Counted from the first letter of the stretch, positions 3,051 through 48,866 are shown. The stretch is DNA of 64,000 nt from a bacterium (GCA_030431715.1 JAUIIO010000007.1:33756-97755), one strand, 5' to 3'. Numbers and translations are program-made. The notes: generated by a model not told the origin, from the sequence alone.

Positions 3051-4298
3051 ATGAGAAGTTTCAGCAGAAAACTTGCCCTATTACTTACGTCACTTTTGTT
3101 TTTACCACTTGCAGTGAGCGCGCAAAACACAGACACGTACTACTGTGACGCGAATGTTTCAGGTTATCAAACCACAGATCAGTTGCAGGTCATAATTGAT
3201 CGAGCGCTTGATAGTAATAATGACAATGTTAAAACCATTTGTTTCGCTCAGGGGACAAATATCACTTTTGGCACAAATCAGCTTGTCTTAAAGGGAAGCG
3301 TAGAATTGGTTGGGCCAGAAGGAACGTATGTCTACTTTGGAAATACGAACACCGAGTATAAGTCACTTATTAAAGTTGATAAGGGAGGAGTACTCTCAGT
3401 CAGGAACCTGTTGCTCTTTACCATGAAAAAGAGCAGTAGCCTCATCCAAGTTACTGAAGGTGCAAAACTCAAAGAGGTTACTCGTACGATATTTTACCTG
3501 ATGGGGAGCTTTTCTACAGGAATTATTGCGGAACAGCCCGATGATAGTAAATACACTACGGACATCGAGAGTATCAATGAGAGTTACTTCTATCTCTATA
3601 GCGGGATATATTCACAAGAAGCTTATGAACCCCGGGCTTCAGCGATTAGTTTGCGTAATGCGAATGTAGACGAGATCCGTAATGTTCAATACTACTCTAC
3701 TCAAAACTTTGACAAGCTTATCAATGCACGTAGTTCGGTTATTAATTCTATCACAGATTTAAATGTTATCGGCAATCGTGCTGAAGTGAATCTCTATAAA
3801 GAGAGTACTATTTTTAGAATAGAGGATGTTACTGGTAATATATATGGAAAGTATGGAAAGTTTTTATTTCTAAAGGATACTTCTAAGCTGGGTAGCTTGA
3901 GGAATGTGAATGTAACGTTAAGAGGCGACTATACGGGACTTATTACAGTATTTGATCAAGCAAGGATCGATCTTGTTGAAAACCTTGATATCGATGCCAT
4001 GAAAGAGACAACATATGGTGATGCACTCTACCTTTACGGCGGTGGTTCCGTTGGAACAATTAATAATGTAACCTATAAAGGAACCATGAGGTTTGCCTAT
4101 ATTGTAAAAGGTGGACACATCGGACAGTTCGGAAATTTCCATCTTGAGCTTGATGGAAGCGGAGATCTGATACGTTTTATAAACGAAGAGTCTTCGATTG
4201 ATTTGCTCTACAATGGAGTACTCCTTGCACTGCATGGTGCCACTATCAATGGTCGCGACCAAGTGAAGAAAGAGGTGAAAGTCTCTCACGAGCTCTAG
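3051..4298 (+). CDS. signal-peptide hypothetical protein (415 aa), possibly beta-helical
   Basis: Signal peptide MRSFSRKLALLLTSLLFLPLAVSAQN. Repetitive N/G/T-rich beta-strand-like segments. Followed by a strong intrinsic terminator. Confidence 0.5.
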   Translation: MRSFSRKLALLLTSLLFLPLAVSAQNTDTYYCDANVSGYQTTDQLQVIIDRALDSNNDNVKTICFAQGTNITFGTNQLVLKGSVELVGPEGTYVYFGNTNTEYKSLIKVDKGGVLSVRNLLLFTMKKSSSLIQVTEGAKLKEVTRTIFYLMGSFSTGIIAEQPDDSKYTTDIESINESYFYLYSGIYSQEAYEPRASAISLRNANVDEIRNVQYYSTQNFDKLINARSSVINSITDLNVIGNRAEVNLYKESTIFRIEDVTGNIYGKYGKFLFLKDTSKLGSLRNVNVTLRGDYTGLITVFDQARIDLVENLDIDAMKETTYGDALYLYGGGSVGTINNVTYKGTMRFAYIVKGGHIGQFGNFHLELDGSGDLIRFINEESSIDLLYNGVLLALHGATINGRDQVKKEVKVSHEL

Positions 4299-4363: not shown

Positions 4364-4478
4364 TAATATGCTGAAAGTATTTGGGAATTTTGGTGAAAAA
4401 GGGGATCGTCCCTTTTGTTTGGACTGGGGTGGGGTGGCGCGGTATATTCTTGGTATGTGGATGTGTTTTGTTCTTTGA

Positions 4479-4488: not shown

Positions 4489-5016
4489 ATGGCGGCGGAT
4501 AGAGTAGAGTGTGGTGCTTGTGGTGGAATGCAGGTTGGACCGGAGGTAAAGCCGCCCGAGAGTTTTGAGGCTCTTTCTTCTACTCCTCTGACTCCTCTTG
4601 CACATTCTTTAAATGTTTACGATGAGTTTGAATTAACTCCAGATAAGATCGCTACACTTCAACGAAAAGATCCCGGTGTCGGGGTTGTCCTTGGTGAAGA
4701 TGGACAGTGGAGTAGGGAAGATGGTGCTCCAGTTGAGTTTAAAAGTGGGGATATTATTTTCTGTGTCGCTAGTCCTGATAAGGAGATGGTCGCAACTCTT
4801 TATCATTCTCTTTCTCGAGCCGCTACTGAATATGCTCGGAGCCTGACTCTCGTTGATGAAGCTGTTTGTCGCTACTCTCCTTCTGAAGAAGCAAACTCTC
4901 CTCTACTTTGTGTATCTCATGATATGTTTTCAGTAGGATTTCGTCCTGATCGGATGTCGTCTGATGATCTGCGTTGCTTGCTCGCTGAGTGTCCTTTTGT
5001 GATGCACTCATCATAG
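4489..5016 (+). CDS. hypothetical protein (176 aa from the SD-preceded ATG)
   Basis: The track ORF 4381..5016 is in the same frame. The ATG at 4489 has a canonical AGGAGG ribosome-binding site, so it is the more likely start. Confidence 0.4.
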   Translation: MAADRVECGACGGMQVGPEVKPPESFEALSSTPLTPLAHSLNVYDEFELTPDKIATLQRKDPGVGVVLGEDGQWSREDGAPVEFKSGDIIFCVASPDKEMVATLYHSLSRAATEYARSLTLVDEAVCRYSPSEEANSPLLCVSHDMFSVGFRPDRMSSDDLRCLLAECPFVMHSS

Positions 5017-5053
5017 CGGCTCCCCGCTTTATCTTCTGCTGTGAAGAGCGCGG

Positions 5054-6787
5054 CTAGACACGCTTCCCTGATCTTACTTCGTCAGCTTGCAGGTACCTGA
5101 TCTTTGTTATGCTCGTTGTGGGGTCATGAAAAAGACCGACTCGAGGAATGTTCAGAAGGCTACTTGCCGCATAGTGGGCATCTGAGTCTTGGAAAGTTCC
5201 TTGGAGGTCAACAAGAAGCTGATCCTCAATGAGAACGCCGTTGTCGCGTAATGCGATGGTAAAGGTGCTGCCAAAGAAAGGATCTTCTCTATTGAGATCT
5301 CTAAGCGCGGTTACTATTGAATGAGCGGTCTTTACGTTTAGCTCGTGGTCTATCGGCCAGTAGTTAAAGCAGCTCTCATCTAGATTCCACGCGGCTTCTG
5401 TTACAGGGCGTCCACTATCTTGATCGTAAATCTTAAATGCAGGGACTACAACTGCGAGAGTGTTTCCTGTTTGCATGGATTGGTAGCCAACTGAGATGAT
5501 CCCTGTTCGCAAGCGCCCAGACTTTATGTTCTGTTCGGAGCAGGCCTGATTTGCAATGTCGTTCATGCTTTCTAGTGTGTGTTCAAGGAACTGTAGGCGA
5601 TCGATGTTATAGAGATCGGATAGTGTTTGATAAGGTTCGGAGTAAGCGCAGACGTAATCGACATTATGGTCGGCTCTTAAGCGTGAAACTTGATTTCTAA
5701 CGTTATTACTTCTCAGTCCTTCTTCGTCAGTTTCAAAATGGAGTGCGGAGGCTGAGGGTACCCAGTGGTCTTCCTCGGTACTGAGGATGTTGTATTCCCC
5801 TCCATGATCAACGATATTTGTAAGTATCTGATACTTGTTTGAAACTACATCTCTTGGCTCAGATGACATCGTAATTCGAGCATTTTGTCCCAATTCAAAT
5901 GCTTCGATGTCGATATCGTGATCCGCGTTTGGTTCTTGAGAGTGTATAAAGATCTCATTTGCCTCAGGAATATCCGCTACCCATGAATCCAGACCTGATA
6001 ATATTTCTCTTACGCGTTGCCTTCCAATGTCAGTCTCGAGCAGATCGCTCAGGAGCATTATTCTATACGGCGTAGTGCGTTCCGGGATTTCTCGCTGAAG
6101 GAGAGTGTAGTTCGTCCCAGGAGTAGTAAATACGTTTCTCTCTCTGCGGCGGAGCTTTTCTCTACTTGATGTGGTCGTGTCGACGCCTTCAAAATCCACG
6201 CGTAAAATCGCTCTTATAACTAGCGTGTCTGGTTCGTCTGCTAAAATCTCTGCGGACCCTCCGTAGGGGCTGAGGAAGGCATGCAGTCGATTTACGGAGA
6301 CATTAATTCCATCAGGTTCGCTAAGAACTGACTCCTTCAGTTCTTCAGGAACACAGGCACGTACAGAAAGCTCACCTGTAGCCTCAAGCTGTATAGTGAG
6401 TTCATCGAGAGAGCTTGAGAATAAGGATAAAATTTCAGCAGAACGCGAATCAGCGAAAGATCTGTCTCCGATTCGTCCAAAGAGATCGTCGTCACGACCA
6501 AATACGCTTGCCATTTTTTCTTCTACATTACTTGTAAGTTCCTTACAGCTATGGAGCAAATTTCCAATTGCCAGCGTTAAGTCAGTCTCCGGAATGTGCG
6601 CTCGTGGGCTTCTTGTTTCAGGGAGTTCCATTTTATGAAACTGACTCTGATAAAGCCTAGCGAGCGTAGTATTCAGATCGGTGCACAAGGCATCTGAATG
6701 CTTAGAAAGATTAGCAAAGTAGTCTCTTAAGCTATCGTCGTTTTGAAGGAGTGAATTTCGAAGCTGATTCGTATGTGTGCATTTCAT
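5054..6787 (-). CDS. large hypothetical protein (about 578 aa; start uncertain)
   Basis: Long intact ORF (track 5054..6949). Its first ~55 codons overlap the upstream 203-aa ORF in another frame and look non-protein-like, so an internal Met at 6787 or 6631 is the likelier start. No known domain recognised. Confidence 0.4.
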   Translation of the reverse strand: MKCTHTNQLRNSLLQNDDSLRDYFANLSKHSDALCTDLNTTLARLYQSQFHKMELPETRSPRAHIPETDLTLAIGNLLHSCKELTSNVEEKMASVFGRDDDLFGRIGDRSFADSRSAEILSLFSSSLDELTIQLEATGELSVRACVPEELKESVLSEPDGINVSVNRLHAFLSPYGGSAEILADEPDTLVIRAILRVDFEGVDTTTSSREKLRRRERNVFTTPGTNYTLLQREIPERTTPYRIMLLSDLLETDIGRQRVREILSGLDSWVADIPEANEIFIHSQEPNADHDIDIEAFELGQNARITMSSEPRDVVSNKYQILTNIVDHGGEYNILSTEEDHWVPSASALHFETDEEGLRSNNVRNQVSRLRADHNVDYVCAYSEPYQTLSDLYNIDRLQFLEHTLESMNDIANQACSEQNIKSGRLRTGIISVGYQSMQTGNTLAVVVPAFKIYDQDSGRPVTEAAWNLDESCFNYWPIDHELNVKTAHSIVTALRDLNREDPFFGSTFTIALRDNGVLIEDQLLVDLQGTFQDSDAHYAASSLLNIPRVGLFHDPTTSITKIRYLQADEVRSGKRV

Positions 6788-7343
6788 CACGTAACACCGT
6801 CTCTGGGGATTTAGCGTCTTTACTGAGCTCATCAAGCACTTTCCGCGCTGGAAGCGCCCCTTTGCCGGCGGATGCGTATACCGATTCGAGCTGAGATTGT
6901 AAGAGTTGTTCTGCGAGAACTTCAACGGCGTTGCATACTTGCAAATCATGATCGTGAGAATCGCAGGTAAATTCGTATAAGGAATGAAGGAGAGGAATGA
7001 GCTCTTTCTCTACTATAGAAGCTGTCTCAGCCTCTGATTCAGCATGCTGTAACTTCTCACGAATGCGATCCCCTTGTTGAAGTATTTGTCGGTATCCTGC
7101 TCTTAGCTCTTTTTCTTTTTGAAGAAGCTCTGGAGAGTTTGCAGCCTCTTGCCACAACTGATCCGCGGTATATCTCGTGCCGAATTGGTTGAGGGCAAGA
7201 AGCTGGTGTGTAATGTCTTGCTCGCCTGTTGATGTAAATCTCCTAGCAAGTTCGAGATGCAACGCCTGCTTTGAAATCTCAAGCGATCTTGATTTCTCCT
7301 GAGCTTCAGGTCTGTTCGCTGAGTGTTGAGTTGATGGTTGCAT
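6732..7343 (-). CDS. hypothetical coiled-coil protein (203 aa)
   Basis: Intact ORF with helical, E/Q/L-rich composition. Directly upstream of the 5054..6787 gene in the same orientation. Confidence 0.35.
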   Translation of the reverse strand: MQPSTQHSANRPEAQEKSRSLEISKQALHLELARRFTSTGEQDITHQLLALNQFGTRYTADQLWQEAANSPELLQKEKELRAGYRQILQQGDRIREKLQHAESEAETASIVEKELIPLLHSLYEFTCDSHDHDLQVCNAVEVLAEQLLQSQLESVYASAGKGALPARKVLDELSKDAKSPETVLRDEMHTYESASKFTPSKRR

Positions 7344-7457
7344 GCTACTCCTCTATGCCGTGATGATATAAAAGACCACAGGAGTCTAACAGTGTTATGA
7401 AAGCGAATCAAACTTGATAATTGCCTGATTTTATTGATATGAGCTGAGCATTCCTAT

Positions 7458-7880
7458 TCAGGATGCTTGAGAGTGTTCACAGATATAGCTGTCCGCTGGG
7501 CGGTGTCTTACGTAGTGGTTTACAGGTCTCTTTCTTGGAACATATCTCCTACTTTGAGCAATTGGTTGTGCTGGTGCGGGTGAAAGTCTCCTTCTTATTT
7601 GATGACGAAAAATAAGACAGAGGGTAACCGTTAGGCATATGCAGTTTGCTAGCGTAGAGTAAAAAAGCATACTTGCTACGCCGTGAATCATGTTCTGAAC
7701 AAGTGCATAAATGAAACTAAGAAGACCAGAGATTGACCAGATGACCCACGCCGAAACTGAAATTTCGACAGAAGAGGTCTGTAAGAGTGCTATCCAGTGC
7801 GGAATATAAGCACACAAAGATAGGATAATAGTTACTGTCTGACAGACATCGCCAAGTATGAGCACATGGTGTAGCTCCAT
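7458..7880 (-). CDS. small multi-pass membrane protein, possibly PQ-loop/SemiSWEET-like
   Basis: Three predicted transmembrane helices. YIPHWIALLQTSSVEISVSAWVIWSISG resembles the PQ-loop signature. Basic C-terminal tail. Confidence 0.35.
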   Translation of the reverse strand: MELHHVLILGDVCQTVTIILSLCAYIPHWIALLQTSSVEISVSAWVIWSISGLLSFIYALVQNMIHGVASMLFYSTLANCICLTVTLCLIFRHQIRRRLSPAPAQPIAQSRRYVPRKRPVNHYVRHRPADSYICEHSQAS

Positions 7881-7980
7881 AAAACCTCCTTAACTCTAAC
7901 TTTAAAAAGAACACTTTCTCTTGCCATCCATTTTACTGGATTCACAGTGCTAAGATAGAAATTGGAATAGAGATTCAGAG

Positions 7981-9231
7981 CTATTGACTAGAGCTTCCGG
8001 GTCTCAGTCTTCTTTGAATAGGGGAAGTACGCTGAGGTTTGGTTGTTTGTGAGTTTCCTGTTTTGTGCTGGTAGAGCGCTTCCATAGTCTCAGTGGAGAA
8101 GGTATTATTTTTGACCTTTCCGTCTGGAGCGAGGGCAAGAAGCGATTCTGCAAAGACTTGTTTTTCTTTGTTACTCATCCTTCCACTTACTCTATCAAGC
8201 AAACCATTTACTTGATCGCGAGGATTAAGGAATTCTTTTACAATTTTATCGTAGGTCTGCTGTGAGTACTCAGAAACTTCTATTGAGGAAACAAGATGCA
8301 CGGCTTGGGCTTGTGGGCTAAGATTTCTAACACGAGCAACCTCAAAAAGTGCGATATCATCGAGATAATTCCCTTGAGTTCGATCGTCTTGTATAGAATG
8401 TTGATCGAGTGGGCTCTGAAATCCTCTTGGCTTTGCAATTATGGTTTCGCTGACCGTAATTTCTTGTCCCGTGAAGAATGCTTTCCCGCGTTCTACGGCA
8501 GTAAACATCTGTCCGAGAAGTGCTACGGGATCGCCGGGATGTTGAAAGTTAACACTTTTAATTGGTGCATTGGTTACATTGTAAGGACTTCCTAGTCGTT
8601 GCACTTCAAATCTTTCTTCAAAGAAATGATCAAGTTTTTGTTGGAATAGCTCTTGTTGCTCAGGTTGGAGGGAATCTCTATAGGCGAGAAGTTCATGCTC
8701 AAACACTTCTAAGGATCTTTTAAGGATTAAGTTCCCCTGGCTGTATCCGCAGACCCATGTTTTGCTCTCTTCGTTTTCCAGTTCGGTAAAGAGCATTTCC
8801 ACCCCGAGGCCTCCTGCTTCTTGCTCTACGTTAAACTCAGGGCCATCTGTGAATGCAGCAATCACACCGTGCGCGAGTCCCTTCATAAAACTTTCTTCTT
8901 TGTTATTGGGGATAACAATGACTTCTCTTCCTTTAGCATTGGCGAGTTCACAGGCTGTTACATAAATCTTTTCTTGCTCCATCTGCATGCCGTTTATGAA
9001 ATAGACTTTTTCATTTGCCGGAGCGTTAACAGCACGAACGCCGTCATCAGGTTGTACAGAGTACATTTGATGTGGATCGAGAGGATAGGGAAGGTCTTTA
9101 GGCAGCGTGTTTTGGATAGCAGAGTTTTCAAGTGCTGAGCTAAGAGCCGAGGAAGGCGCTAGAGCTTGCTCTCTTAAGTCTTCTCCCCTTAGAGAAGCGC
9201 TCATGTTCTCAAAAACATCAGGATTCGCCAT
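7981..9231 (-). CDS. hypothetical protein with GxSxG serine-hydrolase-like motif (416 aa)
   Basis: VCGYSQGN nucleophile-elbow motif lies after a beta-strand-like VYFINGM segment. No signal peptide. Otherwise unrecognised. Confidence 0.4.
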   Translation of the reverse strand: MANPDVFENMSASLRGEDLREQALAPSSALSSALENSAIQNTLPKDLPYPLDPHQMYSVQPDDGVRAVNAPANEKVYFINGMQMEQEKIYVTACELANAKGREVIVIPNNKEESFMKGLAHGVIAAFTDGPEFNVEQEAGGLGVEMLFTELENEESKTWVCGYSQGNLILKRSLEVFEHELLAYRDSLQPEQQELFQQKLDHFFEERFEVQRLGSPYNVTNAPIKSVNFQHPGDPVALLGQMFTAVERGKAFFTGQEITVSETIIAKPRGFQSPLDQHSIQDDRTQGNYLDDIALFEVARVRNLSPQAQAVHLVSSIEVSEYSQQTYDKIVKEFLNPRDQVNGLLDRVSGRMSNKEKQVFAESLLALAPDGKVKNNTFSTETMEALYQHKTGNSQTTKPQRTSPIQRRLRPGSSSQ

Positions 9232-9382
9232 AGTAAACCAGTATAAAATAACCTGCAGTGGTGTTATGCCGTACTACCGGCTCCTCGATACTTTACAGTG
9301 AGTACGAGAAATTCTTAGTGCCATAGAGTCCTGTGCATATTCTTGCGTATCCACAGGGGAGAAAACAGGCTAGGCTTTTTAT

Positions 9383-9694
9383 GTGAAGAAGAGACAAAAA
9401 TACTTACTTATGTTTTGCATTGCTATGGCTGGTGGTTGGCTTCTGACAGAGCTGGTCTCTATCTATAAGAGCCCTGATAGTGGACTTTTTAGAGAACGAA
9501 ACTGCAGTAACTTTGTGCTTCATGTCGCGGCTATCATGAAGAAATACGATAGTCCGCACCCTATTAACCGTACTGGCAGTTTAGAGGAGCTCCGTAGACT
9601 CTGCTCTTCCCCTCCACTTACGAAAGAGCAAATTGATTGCAGTATGAAATCAGACGATCTTGATGAGATTCAGCATTGTATACGTAGGCGGTGA
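9383..9694 (+). CDS. small Cys-containing protein with N-terminal signal/anchor (103 aa)
   Basis: N-terminal hydrophobic segment LLMFCIAMAGGWLLTELVSI. Confidence 0.35.
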   Translation: MKKRQKYLLMFCIAMAGGWLLTELVSIYKSPDSGLFRERNCSNFVLHVAAIMKKYDSPHPINRTGSLEELRRLCSSPPLTKEQIDCSMKSDDLDEIQHCIRRR

Positions 9695-9699
9695 TGAGA

Positions 9700-11265
9700 T
9701 TACTTTGAATCTCTGGAAGAGAATTCTTGGATAAATGAAGTAACTGCTTTTGAGAACTCTTTATCGGTATAGTTTCGCTTTTTTTGTTCTCGTCGATGGT
9801 GCGATACCACGCTTTCTTTACGGAGTGAATGAATCATTCCGAGATTTGAAAGACATGCTCCAATAATTGAAAATCTTTCGTTTGGAGAGATGCGTTTATC
9901 GATCTCTTCGAGATTCTTGTATAAGAGTGCCTTATTATCAACATGAATAATATCACCGTTGTCATCGAGTGCATTTTTTAGCGTATATTTATGTTTCTCG
10001 GGAGATGGGCAGGCAAGATCGGCATAGAGGAGACCTGATTCCAGATCGCACTGTCCAAGATCGAGAACAAGAGAACCATCGGCTTCAAGATCGTATCGTA
10101 GAGTGAAAGTTTCTTGCTGATTGTCATATGGCGACACTATAAAAGAGATACGTGCCTGTTTGTTTGTCCCCCCTGTATCACGCGCGAATACGCTCACGCG
10201 AGGTGTTAGCTTACGTCGTTCACCATCCCAGTTTTCAGGAGCGGATCCTTCACATATGGCTTTTGCCATTTCTTTATGAATGTCTGTCATGGTGGATAGA
10301 AATGTGAAGATTTCAATTGCATGCAGATAAGTCGGGACCATCAGTGATGAAGCTTTCAGGTTCTCTCCTTTAAGCTCTGGCAAGAATTCATCCATGATAG
10401 GAAACGTATTTTTCTCTATGACACTTACTATTCTTTCTCTGGAGACTCTTCTATTTGGATATTCTGGCCAGTAGTAAAGACCGGGAATGGTATTTGGATA
10501 ACGACTGTAACAGCCTACCAGTGCGCTCATATATGCAGAAGCCTCAGTTACGAGGCGATCGCTCTCGTCGACAAATGACATGAGAAGCGTTCTTGCTGGT
10601 ACTCTACGCTTTTTAAAATGTGCGTTAAGCGCTGTTTTAAATTCTGTAATAGCATCAAATGCCTGACCAGCATGAAGCCTAAAAGACGCGTAGAGTCCTT
10701 GTAAGTTTACTCCTTGCTCTCTGTGTCCGGTAACGAGTTCACTCTCCGGGTCAGTGATGTTATACGCAGTATGTAAAACATTGTACGCGACAATAGGATC
10801 CGTTCGGACAAGATTTACGAGCAATCGTTCTTCCTCAGAGTCACGCATTTGGACCTGTTCCTTAAAGACTTCGTCCAGAGTCTTATCGCCCGTAGCAAGT
10901 GAGGTAATGAGGGTAAGCTTTACGTAATCAAATGCAAAATCTACTGCCTGCTCACACCAATAGTGATGTTGCTCAGGGGTGATGCCTGCTTCCTCAGCAT
11001 TGGTAAGATTCTTGTCGTAAAGTTCAGCTGAAAGCTCGCGGCGCTCCTGTCTTGTCAGCCCAAATTCATGATTACCATTAAACTCTGAAGTATAGGGTTT
11101 TCGAGTTTCTCCGATCTCAACAACACGCTCATGTAAAGCGAGGCTAAGCGATTTTAAGTACTCTTTTGCCAGTACAATCTTTTCTATATTACGTAAGGTT
11201 CTTTTATCTGTGGGATCCTCATTCTCATGAGAGGAGGTATGTTTGTTAGATAGATTTTGATGCAT
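9700..11265 (-). CDS. hypothetical protein (521 aa)
   Basis: Long intact ORF. Translationally coupled to the downstream 278-aa ORF, with a stop-to-start gap of 2 nt. Confidence 0.45.
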   Translation of the reverse strand: MHQNLSNKHTSSHENEDPTDKRTLRNIEKIVLAKEYLKSLSLALHERVVEIGETRKPYTSEFNGNHEFGLTRQERRELSAELYDKNLTNAEEAGITPEQHHYWCEQAVDFAFDYVKLTLITSLATGDKTLDEVFKEQVQMRDSEEERLLVNLVRTDPIVAYNVLHTAYNITDPESELVTGHREQGVNLQGLYASFRLHAGQAFDAITEFKTALNAHFKKRRVPARTLLMSFVDESDRLVTEASAYMSALVGCYSRYPNTIPGLYYWPEYPNRRVSRERIVSVIEKNTFPIMDEFLPELKGENLKASSLMVPTYLHAIEIFTFLSTMTDIHKEMAKAICEGSAPENWDGERRKLTPRVSVFARDTGGTNKQARISFIVSPYDNQQETFTLRYDLEADGSLVLDLGQCDLESGLLYADLACPSPEKHKYTLKNALDDNGDIIHVDNKALLYKNLEEIDKRISPNERFSIIGACLSNLGMIHSLRKESVVSHHRREQKKRNYTDKEFSKAVTSFIQEFSSRDSK

Positions 11266-11267
11266 AG

Positions 11268-12104
11268 CTAGAACTTGATTTCTCTTCTATACATCGCTTC
11301 CTGATATTTTTCTGAGAGCGTGTAAGTAACGTGAGGTGTTGCTGAAGGTGAGAGCATAAGGCTTGGCCCATCAGAATTGAGTGGAAATCTCGCCTGAAAT
11401 TGTCCCTGTGGCCCCTTGCCATGAAAAGTGAGGAGCTGAGAAGAAGAGCCTTTTTCTATATCGATTTCGTAACCGGTTTGTAAGCTGTATTGGTCAGAGG
11501 AGAATTTTCCGGAAATCTTTGCACGGTTGCTCTGAAGTGAAGTTGTAACATTAAGCTCGTTTGTAAGTGCATCAAAAGTTGAGAAAAACTTAGAGTCCTT
11601 GAGAGTATCGTCCGGCATAAAAGACTGGTGTGCTGCGAGCTCTCTCCATAAATTTTTAAGGTCTCCGCGGATAGTATAGCCCTGATCGTTATATTGAAAG
11701 GTAACTTCCTTGATTCGTACTTGTACTGCTGGATTTTCTAGTTGTACTCCGTTAAATATTGCCTCGCGGTTTAAAACGAGACTAGCGCCAATATCCTCGT
11801 TACCTGCGGCTAGACCAATTCGATCCTTGTGAAATCCAACCCCAACGTTCTCTCCCCACGCAACTGCTCCTACTTCATCCTGACTAAAGAATGAGGACAC
11901 AGCTTTGTCATTGTCACGTACTCCAGCGAAAAAATCCCCACGTGCGGTGGCGCCGAATCCTGCACCTATATTTTCGCGGTAAAGATCAACGCGGTTCGCA
12001 TTTCCGCTAGCTCCTTCATTTTTTGTGGCAAGTCGATCGCCCAGACCCGAAGGAGAGCCGAGCTCTTTGCTCACAAATTTGATGTCGGATTCAATTTCAT
12101 TCAT
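11268..12104 (-). CDS. hypothetical Gly-rich protein ending in a C-terminal Phe (278 aa)
   Basis: Gly/Ala-rich beta-like N-terminal half. The terminal ...YRREIKF is reminiscent of an outer-membrane beta-barrel signature, but no signal peptide is seen. Confidence 0.4.
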   Translation of the reverse strand: MNEIESDIKFVSKELGSPSGLGDRLATKNEGASGNANRVDLYRENIGAGFGATARGDFFAGVRDNDKAVSSFFSQDEVGAVAWGENVGVGFHKDRIGLAAGNEDIGASLVLNREAIFNGVQLENPAVQVRIKEVTFQYNDQGYTIRGDLKNLWRELAAHQSFMPDDTLKDSKFFSTFDALTNELNVTTSLQSNRAKISGKFSSDQYSLQTGYEIDIEKGSSSQLLTFHGKGPQGQFQARFPLNSDGPSLMLSPSATPHVTYTLSEKYQEAMYRREIKF

Positions 12105-12237
12105 ATCTCTGTTATGAGCCGTATCGGCTCATTGTGTTGTTCTGCTGCGAAGTATGGGGTTGTAATTTAGATAATCGTGATTATCTACATGATATAACTA
12201 ATAAAAATAAACCCCAGCACCCTTTGGTGCGCATTTA

Positions 12238-12243
12238 AGGAGG
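12238..12243 (+). promoter_or_regulatory. Shine-Dalgarno AGGAGG for pirin
   Basis: Sequence ttAAGGAGGggctagATG. Confidence 0.5.
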
Positions 12244-12249
12244 GGCTAG

Positions 12250-12954
12250 ATGATTGAAATAAGAAAGAGCGAAGATCGGGGCCATGTTGACCATGGCTGG
12301 CTAAAAGCTAGACATACATTTTCATTTGCGTCTTACCACGATCCAAAGCATGTGAGATATCGAGTTTTGCGAGTAATGAATGAAGATACGGTTGCCCCGG
12401 CAAGAGGCTTTGGTACTCATCCACACGATAATATGGAGATCGTTACCTGCGTGCTATCAGGTGAGCTTGAACACAAAGATAGTATGGGCAATGGTGAAGT
12501 ACTTAAAGCAGGTGAGTTCCAAGTGATGACTGCTGGTAGTGGTATCACTCATAGTGAGTTTAATCCTTCACCAGATAATGAAACGCATCTCTATCAGATT
12601 TGGCTTTTCCCAGATGAGAAAGACCTGACTCCTCACTATGAGCAGAAGGCGTTTCCAGATGAGGGTGAAAATAGAAAGCTTCAACTTGTGGCGGCTAAGG
12701 GGCATGAGCAAGAGGGAGCCTTGCCAATACATCAAGATGTCATGCTTTACTTGAGTAATCTTAAGGCAGGAGAGGAGATTTCGTTGCCTCTTGAATCCGC
12801 ACGATATGGTTGGCTCCAACTGCTAAGTGGATCAGTCACGATCGAAGAAAGCCATAGCCTAAAGGCTGGTGATGGTGCTTCTCTTAGTGAAGTAGCTCGT
12901 CCGGTTGTTAAAGCAGCGGAAGATAGCAGGTTTCTATTCTTCGATCTTCCCTAG
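12250..12954 (+). CDS. pirin-family protein (bicupin; YhhW/quercetinase-like)
   Basis: N-terminal cupin signature HPHDNMEIVTCVLSGELEHKDSMGNGEVLKAGEFQVMTAGSGITHSE. Typical ~230-aa length. Confidence 0.9.
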   Translation: MIEIRKSEDRGHVDHGWLKARHTFSFASYHDPKHVRYRVLRVMNEDTVAPARGFGTHPHDNMEIVTCVLSGELEHKDSMGNGEVLKAGEFQVMTAGSGITHSEFNPSPDNETHLYQIWLFPDEKDLTPHYEQKAFPDEGENRKLQLVAAKGHEQEGALPIHQDVMLYLSNLKAGEEISLPLESARYGWLQLLSGSVTIEESHSLKAGDGASLSEVARPVVKAAEDSRFLFFDLP

Positions 12955-12964
12955 TGCCATTCTA

Positions 12965-13381
12965 CTAGCGGGTTCGACAACCGAGCCCGCGTGGCATACG
13001 CATGTCTTTGCAGCCGTGCTTCCGATCTTTTTTTGAGCAACTTCCCGGCTTCCAACCTGAGGGACATCTTTCAGGGGCAGGCCTGCTTGTATGTTGCTCT
13101 TTGTGGCTGTGGTGCTGTGCTCTTTCACGCTCACGTTCTAGACGATCTCTTTCTATCGCGAGATCGCGTCTTTCTTGTTCAAGGCGTTCTCGCTCTCTCT
13201 CGCGGTAGTACCGATCTCTATCGTAGTCACGATTTGAATATGTCGGGCGGTACCTTCCGTCGTCATAGTATCTACCGTTAGAGTCGTACCTACCATAATC
13301 GTTGTTCGTGCAAGCTGAGAAAATAAAAGCAAGAGTTAGAAAAAATGTCAGAGAGAGGATTCGGCTCATGTCGCGCTCCAT
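12965..13381 (-). CDS. signal-peptide low-complexity R/D/E/Y-rich protein (138 aa)
   Basis: Signal peptide MSRILSLTFFLTLAFIFSAC (lipobox-like Cys). Followed by YDSNGRYYDDGRYRPTYSNRDYDRDRYYRERERERLEQERRDLAIERDRLERERERA. Confidence 0.5.
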   Translation of the reverse strand: MERDMSRILSLTFFLTLAFIFSACTNNDYGRYDSNGRYYDDGRYRPTYSNRDYDRDRYYRERERERLEQERRDLAIERDRLERERERAQHHSHKEQHTSRPAPERCPSGWKPGSCSKKDRKHGCKDMRMPRGLGCRTR

Positions 13382-13470: not shown

Positions 13471-14349
13471 TTAGCTCTTAATGAATCCCTGCGTCGAAAT
13501 AGGAATTTTGGGAATCAGGCCACCGAACGCCGGAATAGTTATTCCCAATTGGTCTAATCCTTGACGCAGCTTCTCATAGGTTGAGGGCGCGTTTTTCTGC
13601 ATCGTAGTTAGAAAATAAGGGTTATTTTCTAAGTCCTCTCGAGTAACTTGTAAAAAGTCCCGTATGAGGTAAGGCGAGGAGCTGTTTGGAAAGTTGTTGT
13701 TCGCTTCTCTGGGAGGGCCAAAAACATTGAAGTTCATATCTAAGACGGACCGAATTCCATTTGGAAGATCCGGCTTCCATGTGTCAAGATAGGGGAGATT
13801 AAAGCGTCTAGCGAGCTTATATCTCGCATATCCCTCATCTGCGGTATAGGCAGATAAGTGACACTCTTCGATAAGGAATTTTGAAACCTTATCGTAAAGG
13901 GTGGTACCAAATCCTGAGATTTGAAAAAAGTCCTCAGGGCAGAGCTCGTGTAAGTCTCTTACGGTTTTAACACCAATCTCTTCAAGCCCATCAACTACCT
14001 CTATCCCGATATATGACTCTGCAACGAGAGCAAGTGGCTCTTTCTTTATCTCTTCAGTGAATACAAGAGGTATGGAAGCATTTGATGTGTCTTTTGATTC
14101 TTCAACTCTTAGCGCAACTCTTGCAATTGCCCTATCGCAGGGTGTGTTCGGTGTATCCACGTTCTCAGTGATGTGCGCATTACGATTGGCCCTGTAGAGC
14201 TGCAGACCTAAGAGCTCATATTCCTTATCATGTACCATTGAATCAAATACTTGCTTGTCCGTGATAGGAAGTACGCTTTCTGCGCTACGATTTTCCCCTT
14301 CGTCATTTGACCTACTTGTCGTTGAAACGCTACTCGCCATGTTATTCAT
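13471..14349 (-). CDS. hypothetical protein (292 aa), possible helix-hairpin-helix segments
   Basis: Intact ORF. IGVKTVRDLHELCPEDFFQISGFG is HhH-like. Function unknown. Confidence 0.4.
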   Translation of the reverse strand: MNNMASSVSTTSRSNDEGENRSAESVLPITDKQVFDSMVHDKEYELLGLQLYRANRNAHITENVDTPNTPCDRAIARVALRVEESKDTSNASIPLVFTEEIKKEPLALVAESYIGIEVVDGLEEIGVKTVRDLHELCPEDFFQISGFGTTLYDKVSKFLIEECHLSAYTADEGYARYKLARRFNLPYLDTWKPDLPNGIRSVLDMNFNVFGPPREANNNFPNSSSPYLIRDFLQVTREDLENNPYFLTTMQKNAPSTYEKLRQGLDQLGITIPAFGGLIPKIPISTQGFIKS

Positions 14350-23660: not shown

Positions 23661-25522
23661 GTGGCAGTAACAGTAGGATCGAACATAGCCTCTCTTCGGG
23701 CACAGAGACAGCTCAATCGCAGCTCGAACTCTCTTTCAAGTGTGTTTGAACGCCTTTCTTCCGGACAACGAATTAACAGAGCATCTGATGACGCGGCAGG
23801 TCTTGCCATCTCTGAATCACTTAACGTGGATCGAAAAGTTTATACGCAGGGAATGCGCAATCTCAATGATGGGATATCTCTGCTAAACATCGCTGATTCA
23901 GCAATTGCGGAACTTTCGAGTATCGTCATACGAATACAAGAGCTAGCAGAGCAGGCGGCCAATGGCTCACTTTCTCACACCCAACGAGACTCTCTTGATA
24001 GTGAAGCGCAGCAATTAAAAGATGAGTACTTCCGTATCTCACGTTCTACTGATTTTAATAATTTAAATCTCTTTGACGGATCAATTGAACAAGGTGTTCG
24101 GATTCAAGGAGGATATGGCATAGATGGCTCAATCTCCTCTTCGCTTGGTGGAGCGATGGGGGATGGAACGCTACAGGCCACTAATACACTTTCCCGTGGT
24201 AATGGTGGAGGAGAATCAGAGCTAAGAGACATTGATGGTGATGGGGTGCTTGATCTCATCGCTACGGGCTACGCTTATAGCACAGGTACAAATGGAACCA
24301 TCACCGTTTCACTGGGTAATGGTGATGGGACGTTTGGTGCAATGGAACGTTTGGCTCGAATGTTCCCACTGGCGCAAGTGCGTCTCTTTCCATCGCTGAC
24401 CTTAACAACGACGGAAAGCTCGATGTTGCTACAAGCTACTTCGGTGATGTCTCAATCTTACTTGGAAATGGAGACGGAACCTTCGGAGCAGAGCTAACGA
24501 TAAGCACTCCAGCAACTCAAGATCTGTCACTCGCAGATCTTAATAGTGATGGTTTTGTAGATCTAACGGTAGCAGAACGAACAACAGGCAATGTGATTAC
24601 ATTTCTTGGTAATGGAGATGGCACATTTCAAAGTGGCCAAACATTCTCAGCTACCGGAGGCTCCTCTGGCCTTGCCCTTGATGACATAGATGGTGACGGT
24701 GTCATAGATATTGTAGCTGTTAGTAACGAAGTAACTACGCTTCTCGGGAATGGTGATGGCACATTTCAAAGTGCGATTACGTATGCTACTGGTACAGGAT
24801 CTCAAGAGGTAACCATCGGTGATTTGAACAATGATGGTATACTGGATATAGCCACTGCCAACTTTTCAAGTGATGATGTTAGCGTACTTCTTGGTAACGG
24901 TGACGGATCGTTTCAAAGTGCCGTGACTTACGCTGCCGGCAACGGTGCATACGACATTCTGTTTGAAGATATGAATAGTGATGGAACTCTAGATATCCTT
25001 ACCAAGAATTCACTGGATAATTCTATTACGATATTACTTGGAGGTGGTGATGGAACATTCGAAAGTGCCGTATCATATGCGGCGCCCGGTGTGCATGGCT
25101 ACTCAGTTACAAGTGGGGATGTAAATAACGATGGCGTCATTGATATTGTCGCTGGGACTGCTTACAATCATAATGTATTGCTGGGAAATACTCGTGTAGG
25201 TATTGCACCCATTTTAGATTTTTCCCTTTCTACACAGGCTGACGCCCTTCAGGCCCTTGCTCCGTTAAGCCGCAAACTTGACTCGCTTTCTGCCCAGAGA
25301 GGTGTCATTGGAGCGTTTGAGTCACGACTTGCCTCTGCATTGAACACATTGCAGGCTACTAGTGAAAATTACGCTCTGGCTGAATCTAGGATTCGAGATG
25401 CTGATATCGCATTTGAATCCTCTCAGCTCACACGACTAAATATCTTGCAACAGGCCGGAGCGGCAGTGCTCGGGCAGGCAAATCAGCAGCCTGATATTGC
25501 CCTTCAACTACTGACATCATAG
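23661..25522 (+). pseudogene. fliC: flagellin with FG-GAP/VCBS beta-propeller-like central domain, interrupted by a +2 frameshift near 24335-24355 (or sequencing error)
   Basis: GTG start. N-terminal flagellin D0/D1 region (IASLRAQRQLNRSSNSLSSVFERLSSGQRINRASDDAAGLAISE...LNIADSAIAELSSIVIRIQELAEQAANGS) in ORF 23661..24497. C-terminal flagellin domain (SRLASALNTLQATSENYALAESRIRDADIAFESSQLTRLNILQQAGAAVLGQANQQPDIALQLL) in ORF 24593..25522. About eight D(L/I)NNDGxxDI...LLGNGDGTF repeats continue across the break in the +2 frame. Confidence 0.8.
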
Positions 25523-26135: not shown

Positions 26136-27059
26136 TTAATTTTGAATTTTACTACTCTGATAGGCGGTATAGGCCTTTTGTTGTTCCTGCCAGTAGTCTT
26201 CTGTGTTTCCTAGTACTCTTGCTAGGGCTTTCGAAATATCAGGATTCAGATCTGTTTTCGCATCAAGGATACTTTGCAGTTCCTCCTCTTCGAGTTGAAG
26301 CTTCGCAGCGACATTATCAACTGTAAGATTTCGTTTTTTCATTACCCTAGCGAGAATAACTCCTGGATGTTCAGCCGCTTTGACAGCTTTCGAGCGTGAG
26401 CTTTTCTTGAGTTGGGAAGCGTCCATAGTCTTAAGCTTTGCGAGCACTTCAGTGATCAAGAGATACTCGTACTTTTCAGGAGATACCTTTTCAAGTGCCG
26501 ATCGGAGCACGGGGGATATATTTCGCATAAGTACAATCGATGGCCCTGCCCCACGTCCTTTTGTTTTGTGGAGTTGAGCAGCAGCGTCATCTATCGCCTC
26601 CAGCGCTTCCTTTAGCATCATCTGAGAAGCTATATAGTTCTTTTGCTCTTCGTTTTTCTCTGAGGTTTTGTCTGAAGTAATTGCTGTTAGAATCGTTCTC
26701 AAACTATCTACATTATAAGGCTCTTTAAGAAAATGGGTAACACCTGAGAGATAGAATTCAGAGATATACAACGACTCATCATTTTTCGCTTTAATGAGAA
26801 ATACGGTGTTCGCTGCGAGGTTTGGATAAGATTCATTGAGATACTTGAGAAACTTCAGTATGTCTTCGCGCTTACTACTTGAGCGAATGAAAACGGCATC
26901 AAGTTTTGGTTTATTTTGAAGCTTTTCTTTTGCGTCTTTAAAATTCAGTGCGTAATGTAGCTCCGACTTTAGTACGAGTTGATTCATAACCTCTTTTAAC
27001 CGAAGTCGTGTCTTGGAATCAGTTTCGATAATGAGGGATTCTAACTTACGTATAATCAT
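26136..27059 (-). CDS. regulator with N-terminal receiver-like domain and C-terminal HTH (XRE/Cro-C1 type)
   Basis: C-terminal HPGVILARVMKKRNLTVDNVAAKLQLEEEELQSILDAKTDLNPDISKALARVLG is HTH_XRE-like. N-terminal ~120 aa has a CheY-like alternating beta/alpha pattern with a conserved Asp (KLDAVFI). Confidence 0.5.
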   Translation of the reverse strand: MIIRKLESLIIETDSKTRLRLKEVMNQLVLKSELHYALNFKDAKEKLQNKPKLDAVFIRSSSKREDILKFLKYLNESYPNLAANTVFLIKAKNDESLYISEFYLSGVTHFLKEPYNVDSLRTILTAITSDKTSEKNEEQKNYIASQMMLKEALEAIDDAAAQLHKTKGRGAGPSIVLMRNISPVLRSALEKVSPEKYEYLLITEVLAKLKTMDASQLKKSSRSKAVKAAEHPGVILARVMKKRNLTVDNVAAKLQLEEEELQSILDAKTDLNPDISKALARVLGNTEDYWQEQQKAYTAYQSSKIQN

Positions 27060-32465: not shown

Positions 32466-34667
32466 GTGGATCCCACGAAGTTAGTTGTTCGTTCGCTTGT
32501 CGATCTTGGCGAGCTTGAGAATATGCCGTCTGATGAGGCAATTTACTCTCAGTCATGTGGTGCTGTTCGCACCTTAGCAGATCTTGGACTTATTGATGAA
32601 CAGAAAGCGCTTAAGGCGCTTAGTGCAAAGCTCTACGTTGACTACGTTGATCTAGACAGACTTCCAGAGGGAAAAAGGTTAGAGCCGCAGCACTTTGAAG
32701 AACTAAATCGGGAAGTTCTCGCGCGTTATAAGCTTTTTCCACTTTGGAAAGAGAAAGAGAGCTATGTTGTAGCTACTGCCAATCCGTTTGATATGGAAGG
32801 TATTAACCTTCTTGAATTTGCCTTGGGGAAAAGGGTTCAGATCGTTTTGGCAGAGGAATCAAAGATTCAAAGTAGCCTTACAGAGTATTTTCCAGATGAT
32901 ATTTCACAATTTGATATCCTTAGCGATCTTGAGAGCGAAGACTACGTTGAAATTCTGGGAAAAAATAGCGCAACAGAGTCAGATGATATTAATGCCAGTG
33001 AAATTGATGCGCCACCGATTGTAAGGCTCGCGAATAAGATTATCGCTGATGCCTATGACAAGCGAGCAAGTGATATACATATTGAGCCTGGCCAAGATAA
33101 GATTGAGATTCGCTTCCGCATCGATGGGGTAATGCATAATTTCCTCGAAATACCGAAACGACTTCAGCCATATCTCCTTTCTCGTATTAAGCTTATTGCT
33201 GGCATGGATATCGCCGAAAAGCGAAAACCTCAAGATGGCCGGCTAAGAGTGCGGGTAAATCAAGTCCCGATCGATATGCGAGCCTCAAGTGTGCCAACAG
33301 CATTTGGAGAAAAGATGGTGCTGCGGATACTTCGATCAGACGCAGCGAAGGTCACTTTTAGTGAACTCGGGGTTTCTCCTCCAATAGAGAAAAAGCTTAA
33401 TAGTGCTTTAGACAAAAGAGGAAAACTTTTTCTCGTTACTGGTCCAACCGGTTCTGGTAAGACCACGATGCTCTATACGTTCTTAAACTATCTTCGAGAT
33501 GGAAAAACAAATATCCAGACGGTAGAAGATCCAATTGAATATCGCGTGCCCGGAATTAGCCAGATTCAGGTTAATAATGCCACGGGAGTTACATTTGCCA
33601 GCGCCCTGCGTTCTGTACTGCGTCAGGATCCAGATATTATTCTAATTGGTGAAATACGGGATGAAGAGACGGCATGTATCGCTTTACAAGCTGCTCAGAC
33701 CGGACATCTAGTCATATCGACTCTCCATACAAACGACGCGCCAAGTGCTGTGACGCGGCTTATGAACCTTGGTGTGGATCCGTTTCTTCTTGGCTCGAGC
33801 TTGGAAGGGGTTCTCGCACAAAGACTCATTCGCAAAACGTGTGTTGAATGTCAGCGACCTCTGACTGACATGCAGCTTGCTAAATACGGAGCATATATAG
33901 AGCATTATTCAATTGACCCGGCAACTCTCTATGCGGGTACGGGGTGTGAGGAATGTCACTACTCTGGCTACATGGGGCGGACAGGGCTCTATAGTTACCT
34001 GCAGGTTGATGGCAGGATAGAGGAGTGCATATACCGATCTGCTCCGACCTCGGAAATTGTTCATACGGCTTTACAAAGAGATTATACCGATCTTCACTTC
34101 GCAGCAATTGAGGCGGTTAAGAGTGGCATTACCACGTTTGATGAGGTGAAGGCATATCTGGTGCTACCTGAGATTACTGAAGTTGCTCATGTGGCTTCTC
34201 AGCTAAAAGAGGTTCAGGCTGTGGAGGAGGTGCATGAGCAGGAGGAAGAGCAGGTGCAGGAGGAAGAGCAGGAGCCTGCGCGAAATGATGGTATTGAGAA
34301 AACTAAGGTTTTACTTGTTGAGGATGACGAGGATACGCGGAGTGTTCTTTCGCTTCTCTTGCAGCGAGAGATGTACGAGGTTATTGAAGCTGAGAACGGA
34401 GCAGAGGGGCTACAGAAGGTCTATGAGCATAACCCCGGAGTGGTCATCTGTGATATGATGATGCCTGTAATGGATGGTAAAGAGTTTTTAAAGAAGATGC
34501 ATTCTCGCAAAGAAACAAAAAGTATCCCTGTTGTTTTCCTTACAGCAATTGATTCGGAAGAAAATGAGCTCGAACTCCTTGAGCTTGGTGCGCAGGATTT
34601 TGTCAGCAAGACTACCTCATCGAGCATTATGTTGACTCGTATCCGTAATATTTTAGAGCGACAGTAG
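32466..34667 (+). CDS. type II secretion / type IV pilus ATPase (GspE/PilB family) with C-terminal CheY-like receiver domain
   Basis: GTG start after a GGGAGG SD. T2SSE_N-like N-terminal domain. Walker A GPTGSGKTT, Asp box, His box. Tetracysteine CVECQ...CEECHYSG. C-terminal KVLLVEDDEDTRSVLSLLLQ...ICDMMMPVMDG...PVVFLTA receiver domain. Confidence 0.85.
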   Translation: MDPTKLVVRSLVDLGELENMPSDEAIYSQSCGAVRTLADLGLIDEQKALKALSAKLYVDYVDLDRLPEGKRLEPQHFEELNREVLARYKLFPLWKEKESYVVATANPFDMEGINLLEFALGKRVQIVLAEESKIQSSLTEYFPDDISQFDILSDLESEDYVEILGKNSATESDDINASEIDAPPIVRLANKIIADAYDKRASDIHIEPGQDKIEIRFRIDGVMHNFLEIPKRLQPYLLSRIKLIAGMDIAEKRKPQDGRLRVRVNQVPIDMRASSVPTAFGEKMVLRILRSDAAKVTFSELGVSPPIEKKLNSALDKRGKLFLVTGPTGSGKTTMLYTFLNYLRDGKTNIQTVEDPIEYRVPGISQIQVNNATGVTFASALRSVLRQDPDIILIGEIRDEETACIALQAAQTGHLVISTLHTNDAPSAVTRLMNLGVDPFLLGSSLEGVLAQRLIRKTCVECQRPLTDMQLAKYGAYIEHYSIDPATLYAGTGCEECHYSGYMGRTGLYSYLQVDGRIEECIYRSAPTSEIVHTALQRDYTDLHFAAIEAVKSGITTFDEVKAYLVLPEITEVAHVASQLKEVQAVEEVHEQEEEQVQEEEQEPARNDGIEKTKVLLVEDDEDTRSVLSLLLQREMYEVIEAENGAEGLQKVYEHNPGVVICDMMMPVMDGKEFLKKMHSRKETKSIPVVFLTAIDSEENELELLELGAQDFVSKTTSSSIMLTRIRNILERQ

Positions 34668-48023: not shown

Positions 48024-48866
48024 TTACAGATGATAACGTAGAGAAGATGCTCTGCCCAGCCAATATGTACATATACCGACTAGATAGAGAGGAACCTGCG
48101 CTTGGGATGGGGTTTGGGCAATTAAAGTTAGATGACGCTTTGCATGCTGGAAGCAAAGATATAGAGCTTGTGCCTTACTGATGCCCCTCGTCAGCATGAA
48201 AGCTGTTACATAGGATGGTATGGAGTATTTACGGTCGTAATCAGAATCGAGAATGTCATCATACATTTGAATCAAGTACCCAAGGTGGAGCAAGCTAAAA
48301 ATATCTTCTTCAAGGGGAGTACGGCTTTTCTCTGTCGAGGTATTTAGGGAATCTACTGGGAGGGCGAACAGTTGACAGATGGCGTCAAAGATAGCTCTGG
48401 TTTCTCTTTCCCGCGCGGACAAGATCTCATTTGAATCAGTGAGTTTTTTATTCTGAGATTGCGATTTTATGATTCGTCGATAGCTGGGCAGTATTTGTAA
48501 GAGTCTTTTGCGAGAGCGCATTCTTACCCGTAGTGAAATATAGTGGTCATAATCAAAGCTTTTTCCGTCATAGTAACGATTTAGAAGTGAAGCGAAATCA
48601 GTGAAGAGAGCCGCGTCATTTCTTGCCCCGTTTGAAAGTGAGATGCCATGGAGTAAGGCGATGTAGTCAAAGGCAGAAATAAGTCCCGTTCTTAGAGGGG
48701 TAGCCGGGGATTGGGTGAAAAAGAAGCGTACATTTCGTAGCGTAAGTATGAAAGCGTATAGAGCGCGAACTGATTTTTGTATCATTCTTGTCTTGGGGGT
48801 CGGTATTTGACTACTATAGCTTTGGATGTGCTTGATTACCAGTAGCATCACCCTCAGATGCCCCAA
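48024..48866 (-). CDS. hypothetical protein (280 aa), weak isoprenoid-synthase-like Asp-rich motif
   Basis: YLIQMYDDILDSDYD resembles a DDxxD-type motif, but the match is weak and helical. Confidence 0.3.
   Translation of the reverse strand: MGHLRVMLLVIKHIQSYSSQIPTPKTRMIQKSVRALYAFILTLRNVRFFFTQSPATPLRTGLISAFDYIALLHGISLSNGARNDAALFTDFASLLNRYYDGKSFDYDHYISLRVRMRSRKRLLQILPSYRRIIKSQSQNKKLTDSNEILSARERETRAIFDAICQLFALPVDSLNTSTEKSRTPLEEDIFSLLHLGYLIQMYDDILDSDYDRKYSIPSYVTAFMLTRGISKAQALYLCFQHAKRHLTLIAQTPSQAQVPLYLVGICTYWLGRASSLRYHL

Follow-up and report, generated by a model that had tools for sequence, protein, structure and literature searches.

Among the described proteins, the closest to the one considered here are the alpha/beta-hydrolase esterases and lipases, namely the hydrolase domain of Burkholderia Obc1 (5ikz), the carboxylesterase of Pseudomonas fluorescens (1auo), and the hormone-sensitive-lipase-like esterases. 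A GYSQG motif is found in mycobacteriophage LysB and in cutinases, which are secreted, disulfide-bonded proteins of about 200 amino acids (aa). Furthermore, the lipase effectors Tle1 to Tle4 of the type VI secretion system (T6SS) reportedly belong to the GxSxG class. The present study deals with a 64,000-nucleotide (nt) stretch of DNA from a bacterium (GCA_030431715.1 JAUIIO010000007.1:33756-97755; hereafter, the window). An earlier note on this DNA had marked positions 4489 to 12104 as a block of eight family-less open reading frames (ORFs), mostly on the minus strand, and as a possible effector/toxin islet. One of them (7981 to 9231, minus strand) encodes a 416-aa protein which, judged from residue conservation and a predicted structure, belongs to the serine hydrolases with an alpha/beta-hydrolase fold and, among these, to a rare family without a Pfam model. 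The block as a whole is probably a group of lineage-restricted, vertically inherited native genes of a sparsely sampled bacterium, which includes one Ser-Asp-His hydrolase of esterase/lipase type from a novel family.

In comparison with the alpha/beta-hydrolase esterases, the 416-aa protein could not be related by sequence to any Pfam family or PDB chain, and it adds a variable N-terminus, a two-helix insertion, C-terminal helices, and an R-R-x-R-P-G-S tail. The protein itself matched no Pfam family at E ≤ 1, and the profile of its family found no sequence match among PDB chains. The marginal Pfam matches, each from a single family member, all fell in the same superfamily (DUF900, PE-PPE, Cutinase, and Palm_thioest). 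The GYSQG motif is common to the 416-aa protein, cutinases, and LysB. Membership of the cutinase (PF01083) or PE-PPE (PF08237) family was considered and set aside, the best E-values being 0.16 and 0.048, respectively, in one of 16 members each. Moreover, unlike cutinases, the protein is larger, has two cysteines, and lacks a signal peptide. It resembles Tle1 to Tle4 as a serine hydrolase that has a GxSxG-type elbow and lacks a Sec signal. It could not be placed in a Tle family, as there was no Pfam match, including to DUF2235, Lipase_3, and DUF3274, which we take to cover Tle1 to Tle3, and no PDB match with the family profile. In contrast to Tle1 to Tle4, it is accompanied neither by T6SS genes among the scanned window ORFs of at least 150 aa nor by a conserved adjacent immunity gene. 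The features of polymorphic toxin/immunity systems, that is, a trafficking domain, a variable C-terminal toxin, and a small immunity gene, were not found in the block. The locus is more like the orphan gene clusters of poorly sampled phyla, with which it shares native composition, a lack of homologues in the searches made, singleton protein clusters, and no-family ORFs across the window; it is set apart from such ordinary clusters only by a local density of large, acidic, signal-less proteins.

The earlier note had read an isolated GxSxG in the 416-aa protein (VCGYSQGN; 8731 to 8754, minus strand) as a hydrolase elbow. Conservation together with the structural model bears this out and points to a genuine catalytic elbow of a Ser-Asp-His hydrolase. 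A HMMER scan of 1.84 billion representative proteins (cut-off E 1e-3) yielded 16 relatives, two of them at 45% and 42% identity (from SRR28385528 and SRR28370423, respectively) and most others at about 26 to 31%. The family is very rare, with 17 representatives in 1.84 billion. One relative, a 3,120-aa repeat protein, was judged spurious and excluded from the family alignment (A1, 16 sequences). G81, G101, N109, E136, S164, Q165, and D234 are invariant in this alignment, and at least 90% of the 16 sequences share G166. Ser164 (codon 8740 to 8742), present in 16 of 16, lies in the model between strand 158-163 and helix 166-186. The proposed catalytic acid, Asp234 (codon 8530 to 8532, minus strand; motif HPGDPV), follows strand 225-230. 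The proposed catalytic base, His278 (codon 8398 to 8400, minus strand; motif DQHSI), is in the loop after strand 262-266 and is kept in at least 90% of A1, the sole exception being a truncated member, P0020. All three residues are also aligned in a distant member, P0024 (hhalign probability 98.9%). The elbow consensus of the family is [GA]-[YH]-S-Q-G, with AYSQG in most members and GYSQG here.

The AlphaFold2 model built on the family alignment reached a mean pLDDT of 77.3 and a pTM of 0.77, with a core above 90. In this model, the nucleophile elbow sits at the turn between a beta-strand and a helix, Ser, Asp, and His come in this order, each after a successive core strand, and the overall fold is similar to that of solved alpha/beta-hydrolases. 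The protein begins with a low-confidence N-terminus (residues 1-43). Then comes the catalytic core, which is interrupted behind the nucleophile by an insertion of two helices, and the C-terminal part consists of about 100 residues of helical structure and a basic tail. Across the family, the N-terminal 45 to 70 residues are unconserved. Many members end in a basic R-R-x-R-P-G-S-x-x-R-like tail behind a poorly conserved linker (residues about 400 to 416, DNA about 7984 to 8034). This tail might serve in targeting, in binding to membranes, or as a site of processing. By analogy, the 416-aa protein is most likely an esterase or a lipase. In the mechanism that we propose, Ser164 would attack an ester (or thioester/amide) bond, with His278 as the base and Asp234 as the acid. 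The oxyanion hole would be formed by the backbone around G81-M82 in the motif F-I-N-G-M, and a lid may be provided by the two helices inserted behind the nucleophile. With its distinct layout and defined catalytic triad, the family could be described as a new one. The practical gain is modest: a protein without a family is now placed as a Ser-Asp-His alpha/beta hydrolase with a testable active site.

The genomic surroundings of the relatives were retrieved for six family members, and the homology of their neighbors to the window was tested for five. All six contexts are different. The 45% homologue lies beside a sigma factor, an arylsulfotransferase, and an ATPase of MshEN-T2SSE-receiver type that is 39% identical to the one in the window, and its contig evidently comes from a related organism. 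A second homologue is beside a response regulator, a third among MurJ, PFK, and MlaA genes, a fourth among CBS-domain and peptidase genes, and a fifth on a short contig with a DUF937-like gene. The sixth is P0024, which carries an AHSQG elbow and, by profile alignment, is a genuine member of the hydrolase family. On a contig of 63% GC (L086, 78 to 11118), it adjoins the gene of a 473-aa methyltransferase and the core genes of a T6SS (ClpV, TssG, TssF, TssE, ImpE/TagJ, Hcp, and TssC).

The genes beside the homologues are all different and mostly convergent. No neighbor of the homologues matched any window ORF below E 0.05 (phmmer --max, five contexts), and no conserved downstream partner or immunity-like gene was present in the six contexts. 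Similarly, whereas a membrane-protein gene follows the hydrolase gene in the window, none does so in the loci with a listed downstream gene. Since the contexts differ and, in the five tested, hold no homologues of the block genes, the hydrolase gene stands alone. It is the nucleus of neither a conserved module nor a toxin-immunity pair, and the block as such is no conserved module.

To examine the coding status and composition of the block, the six frames of each ORF were scored under a codon model, for which 22 window genes with Pfam support had served as the training set. In every block ORF, the annotated frame ranked first, with a smaller margin in the 103-aa ORF than in the others. The scores of the block (-3.96 to -4.13 per codon) compare with -3.94 to -4.07 for the reference genes, and GC is flat at 0.42 to 0.47 across 1 to 20 kb. 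Thus, the comparison of GC and codon usage with the flanks, which the earlier note had suggested as a check, revealed no compositional anomaly. Neither a tRNA gene nor an Rfam element was found in the window, no integrase or transposase domain was detected with Pfam, and the direct or inverted terminal repeats around the block were at chance level. Two further sequencing runs yielded independently assembled contigs that agree with the window at 100% identity over 5.3 kb and 2.6 kb; one of these runs, SRR24442557, is a biofloc aquaculture metagenome (PMC10582022). Neither the compositional deviation nor the mobility marks of a horizontally acquired island were therefore seen. The native composition, the lack of mobility marks, and the identical independent contigs together indicate that the genes are real and native and do not form an islet of recent acquisition. 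A recent horizontal transfer, a prophage remnant, and spurious ORFs are thus all unlikely.

Searches with the block proteins agree with the claim that the eight ORFs have no recognizable family, since even permissive thresholds gave none of them a match in Pfam, NCBIfam, PHROGs, or PADLOC. The 203-aa protein gave sub-threshold matches only (Pfam and PDB sequences). PDB sequence searches with seven block proteins and with the hydrolase family profile returned chance-level matches only, and no enzyme signature was found in the other seven block proteins with Pfam and NCBIfam. In a word-indexed search of 5.8 billion clustered proteins, the 521-aa protein matched solely itself, and neither it nor the 278-aa protein had a relative in IMG/VR scans. 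No match to any of seven block proteins was obtained by translated searches (tblastn) of 72,556 plasmid and 50,697 phage records, and a pattern scan of JGI metagenomes found no relative of the 577-aa protein. A metagenome scan with a sub-alignment of the hydrolase was also empty, the full alignment A1 being too divergent for seeding one. Paralogues of block proteins or repeated cassettes were absent from the window. The seven ORFs other than the hydrolase gene are most simply regarded as lineage-specific or fast-diverging, with relatives that are unsampled or too diverged for the searches made.

Several points weigh against regarding the block as ordinary native genes of a sparsely sampled lineage. 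The clustering of several large, acidic, signal-less proteins is not explained by their being just orphans, and one distant member of the hydrolase family, P0024, adjoins a T6SS cluster. Besides, the full HMMER search and the alignment-based structure prediction were applied to the 416-aa protein only, that is, one of the eight. Because the sensitive search covered this single block protein, the orphan status of the 577-, 278-, 203-, 175-, 140-, and 103-aa ORFs is weakly established.

With respect to the clustering, about 17 of the 48 scanned window ORFs of at least 150 aa have no Pfam match. On a rough estimate that assumes neighboring genes to be independent, six large no-family genes in a row are only moderately unusual, and would be expected a few times per genome. 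Runs of large, signal-less proteins without a family are expected in lineages that have no close database relatives, and alone they are no evidence for an effector island.

The alternative that survives best, which we nevertheless consider rather unlikely, is the effector/toxin islet of the earlier note. Here, the signal-less proteins would be substrates of specialized secretion, the 416-aa protein a lipase or esterase effector, and the small neighbors chaperones or immunity factors. The large proteins indeed lack signal peptides, as the note had claimed, since no hydrophobic segment was seen in a 19-residue Kyte-Doolittle scan, which is a heuristic for localization and not a signal-peptide predictor. 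They are also hydrophilic and acidic (isoelectric points 4.7 to 5.8). A lack of Sec signals is in keeping with specialized secretion, whereas no type III, type IV, or type VI secretion gene was found among the scanned ORFs of at least 150 aa in the 64-kb window. Candidate N-terminal features might be read in the same way: the model of the hydrolase is of low confidence over residues 1-43, the N-terminal 50 to 70 residues are unconserved in its family, and the N-termini of block proteins are slightly richer in S/T/N/Q/P (0.375 versus 0.287; one-sided p = 0.03, post hoc). For type III effectors in particular, this weak enrichment is the one sign in favor. In contrast, trafficking or toxin domains of RHS, PAAR, LXG, or filamentous haemagglutinin type are absent from the block proteins (Pfam and NCBIfam), no defense-system match was obtained with PADLOC, and the Pfam families that presumably cover Tle lipase effectors gave no match.

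The position of P0024 beside ClpV, TssG, TssF, TssE, Hcp, and TssC genes also speaks for an effector islet, but secretion genes are absent in five of the six homologue contexts. Similarly, the gene for a protein with three transmembrane segments after the hydrolase gene could be taken for that of a partner, although a partner gene is never conserved beside the homologues. The native composition and the lack of any mobility mark are further points against such an islet. The earlier note had named clade-wide synteny or a metabolic-enzyme fold as observations that would count against its proposal. A confident enzyme fold was found for one protein, but it is of an esterase/lipase kind that effectors also use, and this argument therefore carries only half way. 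Nevertheless, P0024 beside its T6SS cluster is a lead for a possible new class of lipase/esterase effectors.

A bolder form of this idea, which we regard as unlikely, is that the block encodes the cargo of a specialized non-Sec export route in a bacterium that may be predatory or live attached to surfaces. In that case, the 416-aa protein would be the first of a new family of effectors, namely secreted lipases or esterases, a view to which P0024 beside its T6SS cluster would lend support. The 278/521-aa and 203/577-aa proteins would be effector-partner pairs of a kind not seen before. Candidate targeting signals of the hydrolase would be its N-terminus, which is variable, and its basic C-terminal tail, which is conserved.

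A hydrolase-centered operon is a still more doubtful explanation. It would serve lineage-specific ester or lipid metabolism or envelope remodelling, with the orphans as enzymes or structural partners. Six of the eight block genes are on one strand with short gaps; the 278- and 521-aa genes are 2 nt apart, the 203- and 577-aa genes overlap or abut, and the gene for the 140-aa membrane protein starts 100 nt downstream of the hydrolase gene. These spacings would suit an operon, but a gap of 468 nt, which holds the opposite-strand 103-aa ORF, splits the 521-aa gene from the 416-aa gene. In the five contexts tested, hydrolase homologues elsewhere are never flanked by homologues of block genes, and the other block proteins carry no enzyme signature.

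That the block is a mobile island of recent origin, the remains of a prophage, or an inserted plasmid is very improbable and largely refuted. A dense run of no-family genes beside a housekeeping gene would suit this reading. GC and codon usage cannot be told apart from those of the flanks, integrase, transposase, and tRNA genes as well as terminal repeats are missing, and no PHROG, phage, plasmid, or IMG/VR relative (the last for the 521- and 278-aa proteins) was found. The block is neither a mobile island nor a conserved functional module. Most block ORFs are without homologues found, which might suggest spurious ORFs or an assembly artefact, but this notion is scarcely credible overall and is refuted for the large ORFs, as the annotated frame is clearly the best in all block ORFs, open frames of 521 to 577 codons are improbable by chance at 44% GC, two independent assemblies are 100% identical, and the 416-aa protein has conserved homologues and a confident fold.

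The eight consecutive ORFs at 4489 to 12104 were recovered by ORF calling as the earlier note had listed them. They probably fall into several transcription units, namely 278-521, 416 (perhaps with the gene for the 140-aa membrane protein), and 203-577, besides the two opposite-strand ORFs. The first encodes a 175-aa acidic protein without a family (4489 to 5016, plus strand) and is convergent with the next gene. Its ATG at 4489 lies behind a GAAGGAGGG box, and a longer version from a TTG at 4381 is unlikely. The second encodes an acidic, hydrophilic orphan of 577 aa (5054 to 6787, minus strand) or 631 aa (5054 to 6949). Its start is ambiguous between 6787, as in the Logan gene call, and 6949, as in the longest ORF, with 6631 as another candidate. 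Given the start at 6787, it is overlapped by 56 nt by the gene for a hydrophilic orphan of 203 aa (6732 to 7343, minus strand), whose ATG is preceded by AGAGGAG.

The 140-aa basic membrane protein (7458 to 7880, minus strand) has three hydrophobic segments in the hydropathy scan, and a strong AAGGAGG precedes its ATG. Three transmembrane segments, an I-P-H-W motif, and AYIPHWIALLQTSS had suggested by eye a PQ-loop/SemiSWEET protein, and this assignment was dropped for want of Pfam or PDB sequence support. Beyond the hydrolase gene lies the 103-aa ORF (9383 to 9694, plus strand), whose product has one N-terminal hydrophobic anchor by the same scan. It becomes a 94-aa gene when started from the ATG at 9410, as called in the Logan contig.

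The last two genes form a pair, with the 278-aa orphan first (11268 to 12104, minus strand) and the 521-aa hydrophilic orphan second (9700 to 11265, minus strand). The earlier note had described them as translationally coupled. The junction reads TAG-CT-ATG, with the stop 2 nt before the 521-aa start, and co-transcription is likely. No Shine-Dalgarno sequence is present there, and the translational coupling itself is an inference. The 278-aa protein contains three weak E-[ND]-[IV]-G-x-[GS]-[FL] repeats at residues 44, 85, and 103. An AlphaFold2 model of the 521-aa protein from its single sequence was discarded (pLDDT 38).

A divergent intergenic region of 145 bp (12105 to 12249) separates the 278-aa gene from the pirin gene (12250 to 12954, plus strand; Pfam Pirin E 7.8e-34 and Pirin_C_2 E 3.8e-21). 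This region contains a perfect palindrome, ATGAGCCGTATCGGCTCAT, with an 8-bp stem (12114 to 12132), 10 to 28 nt upstream of the 278-aa start codon. It was picked up as a hairpin by the terminator scan, and could be a candidate operator site or a hairpin in the 5′-untranslated region.

The pirin gene is where the earlier note had placed it, at the end of the block. As a boundary it does not hold, since ORFs without a Pfam match lie on both sides of the block (273 to 800 and 3051 to 4298 upstream; 13471 to 14349 downstream), which makes the limits of the block arbitrary. Just past pirin, a 138-aa lipoprotein-like ORF (12965 to 13381, minus strand) has a hydrophobic N-terminal segment followed by a cysteine, and an extremely charged body of low-complexity RDRY/ERER sequence; this ORF was left out of the Pfam scan. 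The 292-aa ORF at 13471 to 14349 (minus strand) had no Pfam, PHROG, or PADLOC match and shows helix-hairpin-helix-like segments by eye. Further ORFs without a Pfam match, of 175 to 648 aa, are located at 273 to 800, 3051 to 4298, 26136 to 27059, 34717 to 36600, 48024 to 48866, 54675 to 56621, 60336 to 61145, and 62525 to 63526. Their spread across the window suggests that the orphan-rich character is genome-wide and not confined to the block.

Every protein looked up, including pirin and an upstream 415-aa secreted protein, forms a singleton cluster at 90% identity. Among the matches listed from GTDB species representatives, the best relatives of pirin are 57 to 58% identical and come from metagenome-assembled genomes of Planctomycetota, which weakly suggests an affinity of the host with this phylum. 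Homologues of block genes were absent from the pirin loci listed in the GTDB scan, at least 80 in number. Otherwise, the window encodes flagellin, Tad-pilus components, MshEN-T2SSE-receiver ATPases, secreted proteases, and ordinary metabolism. The lineage is that of a Gram-negative bacterium not yet in culture, which has flagella, Tad pili, and a GC content of about 44%, and which was encountered in a metagenome from marine biofloc aquaculture.

A few other genes of the window deserve mention. The flagellin gene (23661 to 25522, plus strand) carries a large FG-GAP insert and is split into two ORFs. The first has Flagellin_N and one FG-GAP repeat, and the second has FG-GAP repeats (four matched stretches) and Flagellin_C. 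Upstream, the second frame has no stop as far as 24401 at least, and thus runs into the end of the first ORF (24497). This points to a frameshift, which may reflect a true pseudogene or a mistake in the assembly. A 733-aa pilus/secretion ATPase with a C-terminal response-regulator receiver (MshEN, T2SSE, and Response_reg; 32466 to 34667, plus strand) is accompanied in the window by a shorter protein with a partial T2SSE and a receiver (45549 to 47186, minus strand). The MshEN, T2SSE, and Response_reg architecture recurs on the contig of the closest hydrolase homologue (L083, 5397 to 7619). Lastly, a UTP-glucose-1-phosphate uridylyltransferase of the PF01704 type (E 1e-122; 40230 to 41660, plus strand), a type that is mostly eukaryotic, is encoded directly upstream of a sugar nucleotidyltransferase of NTP_transferase type (41672 to 42559, plus strand).

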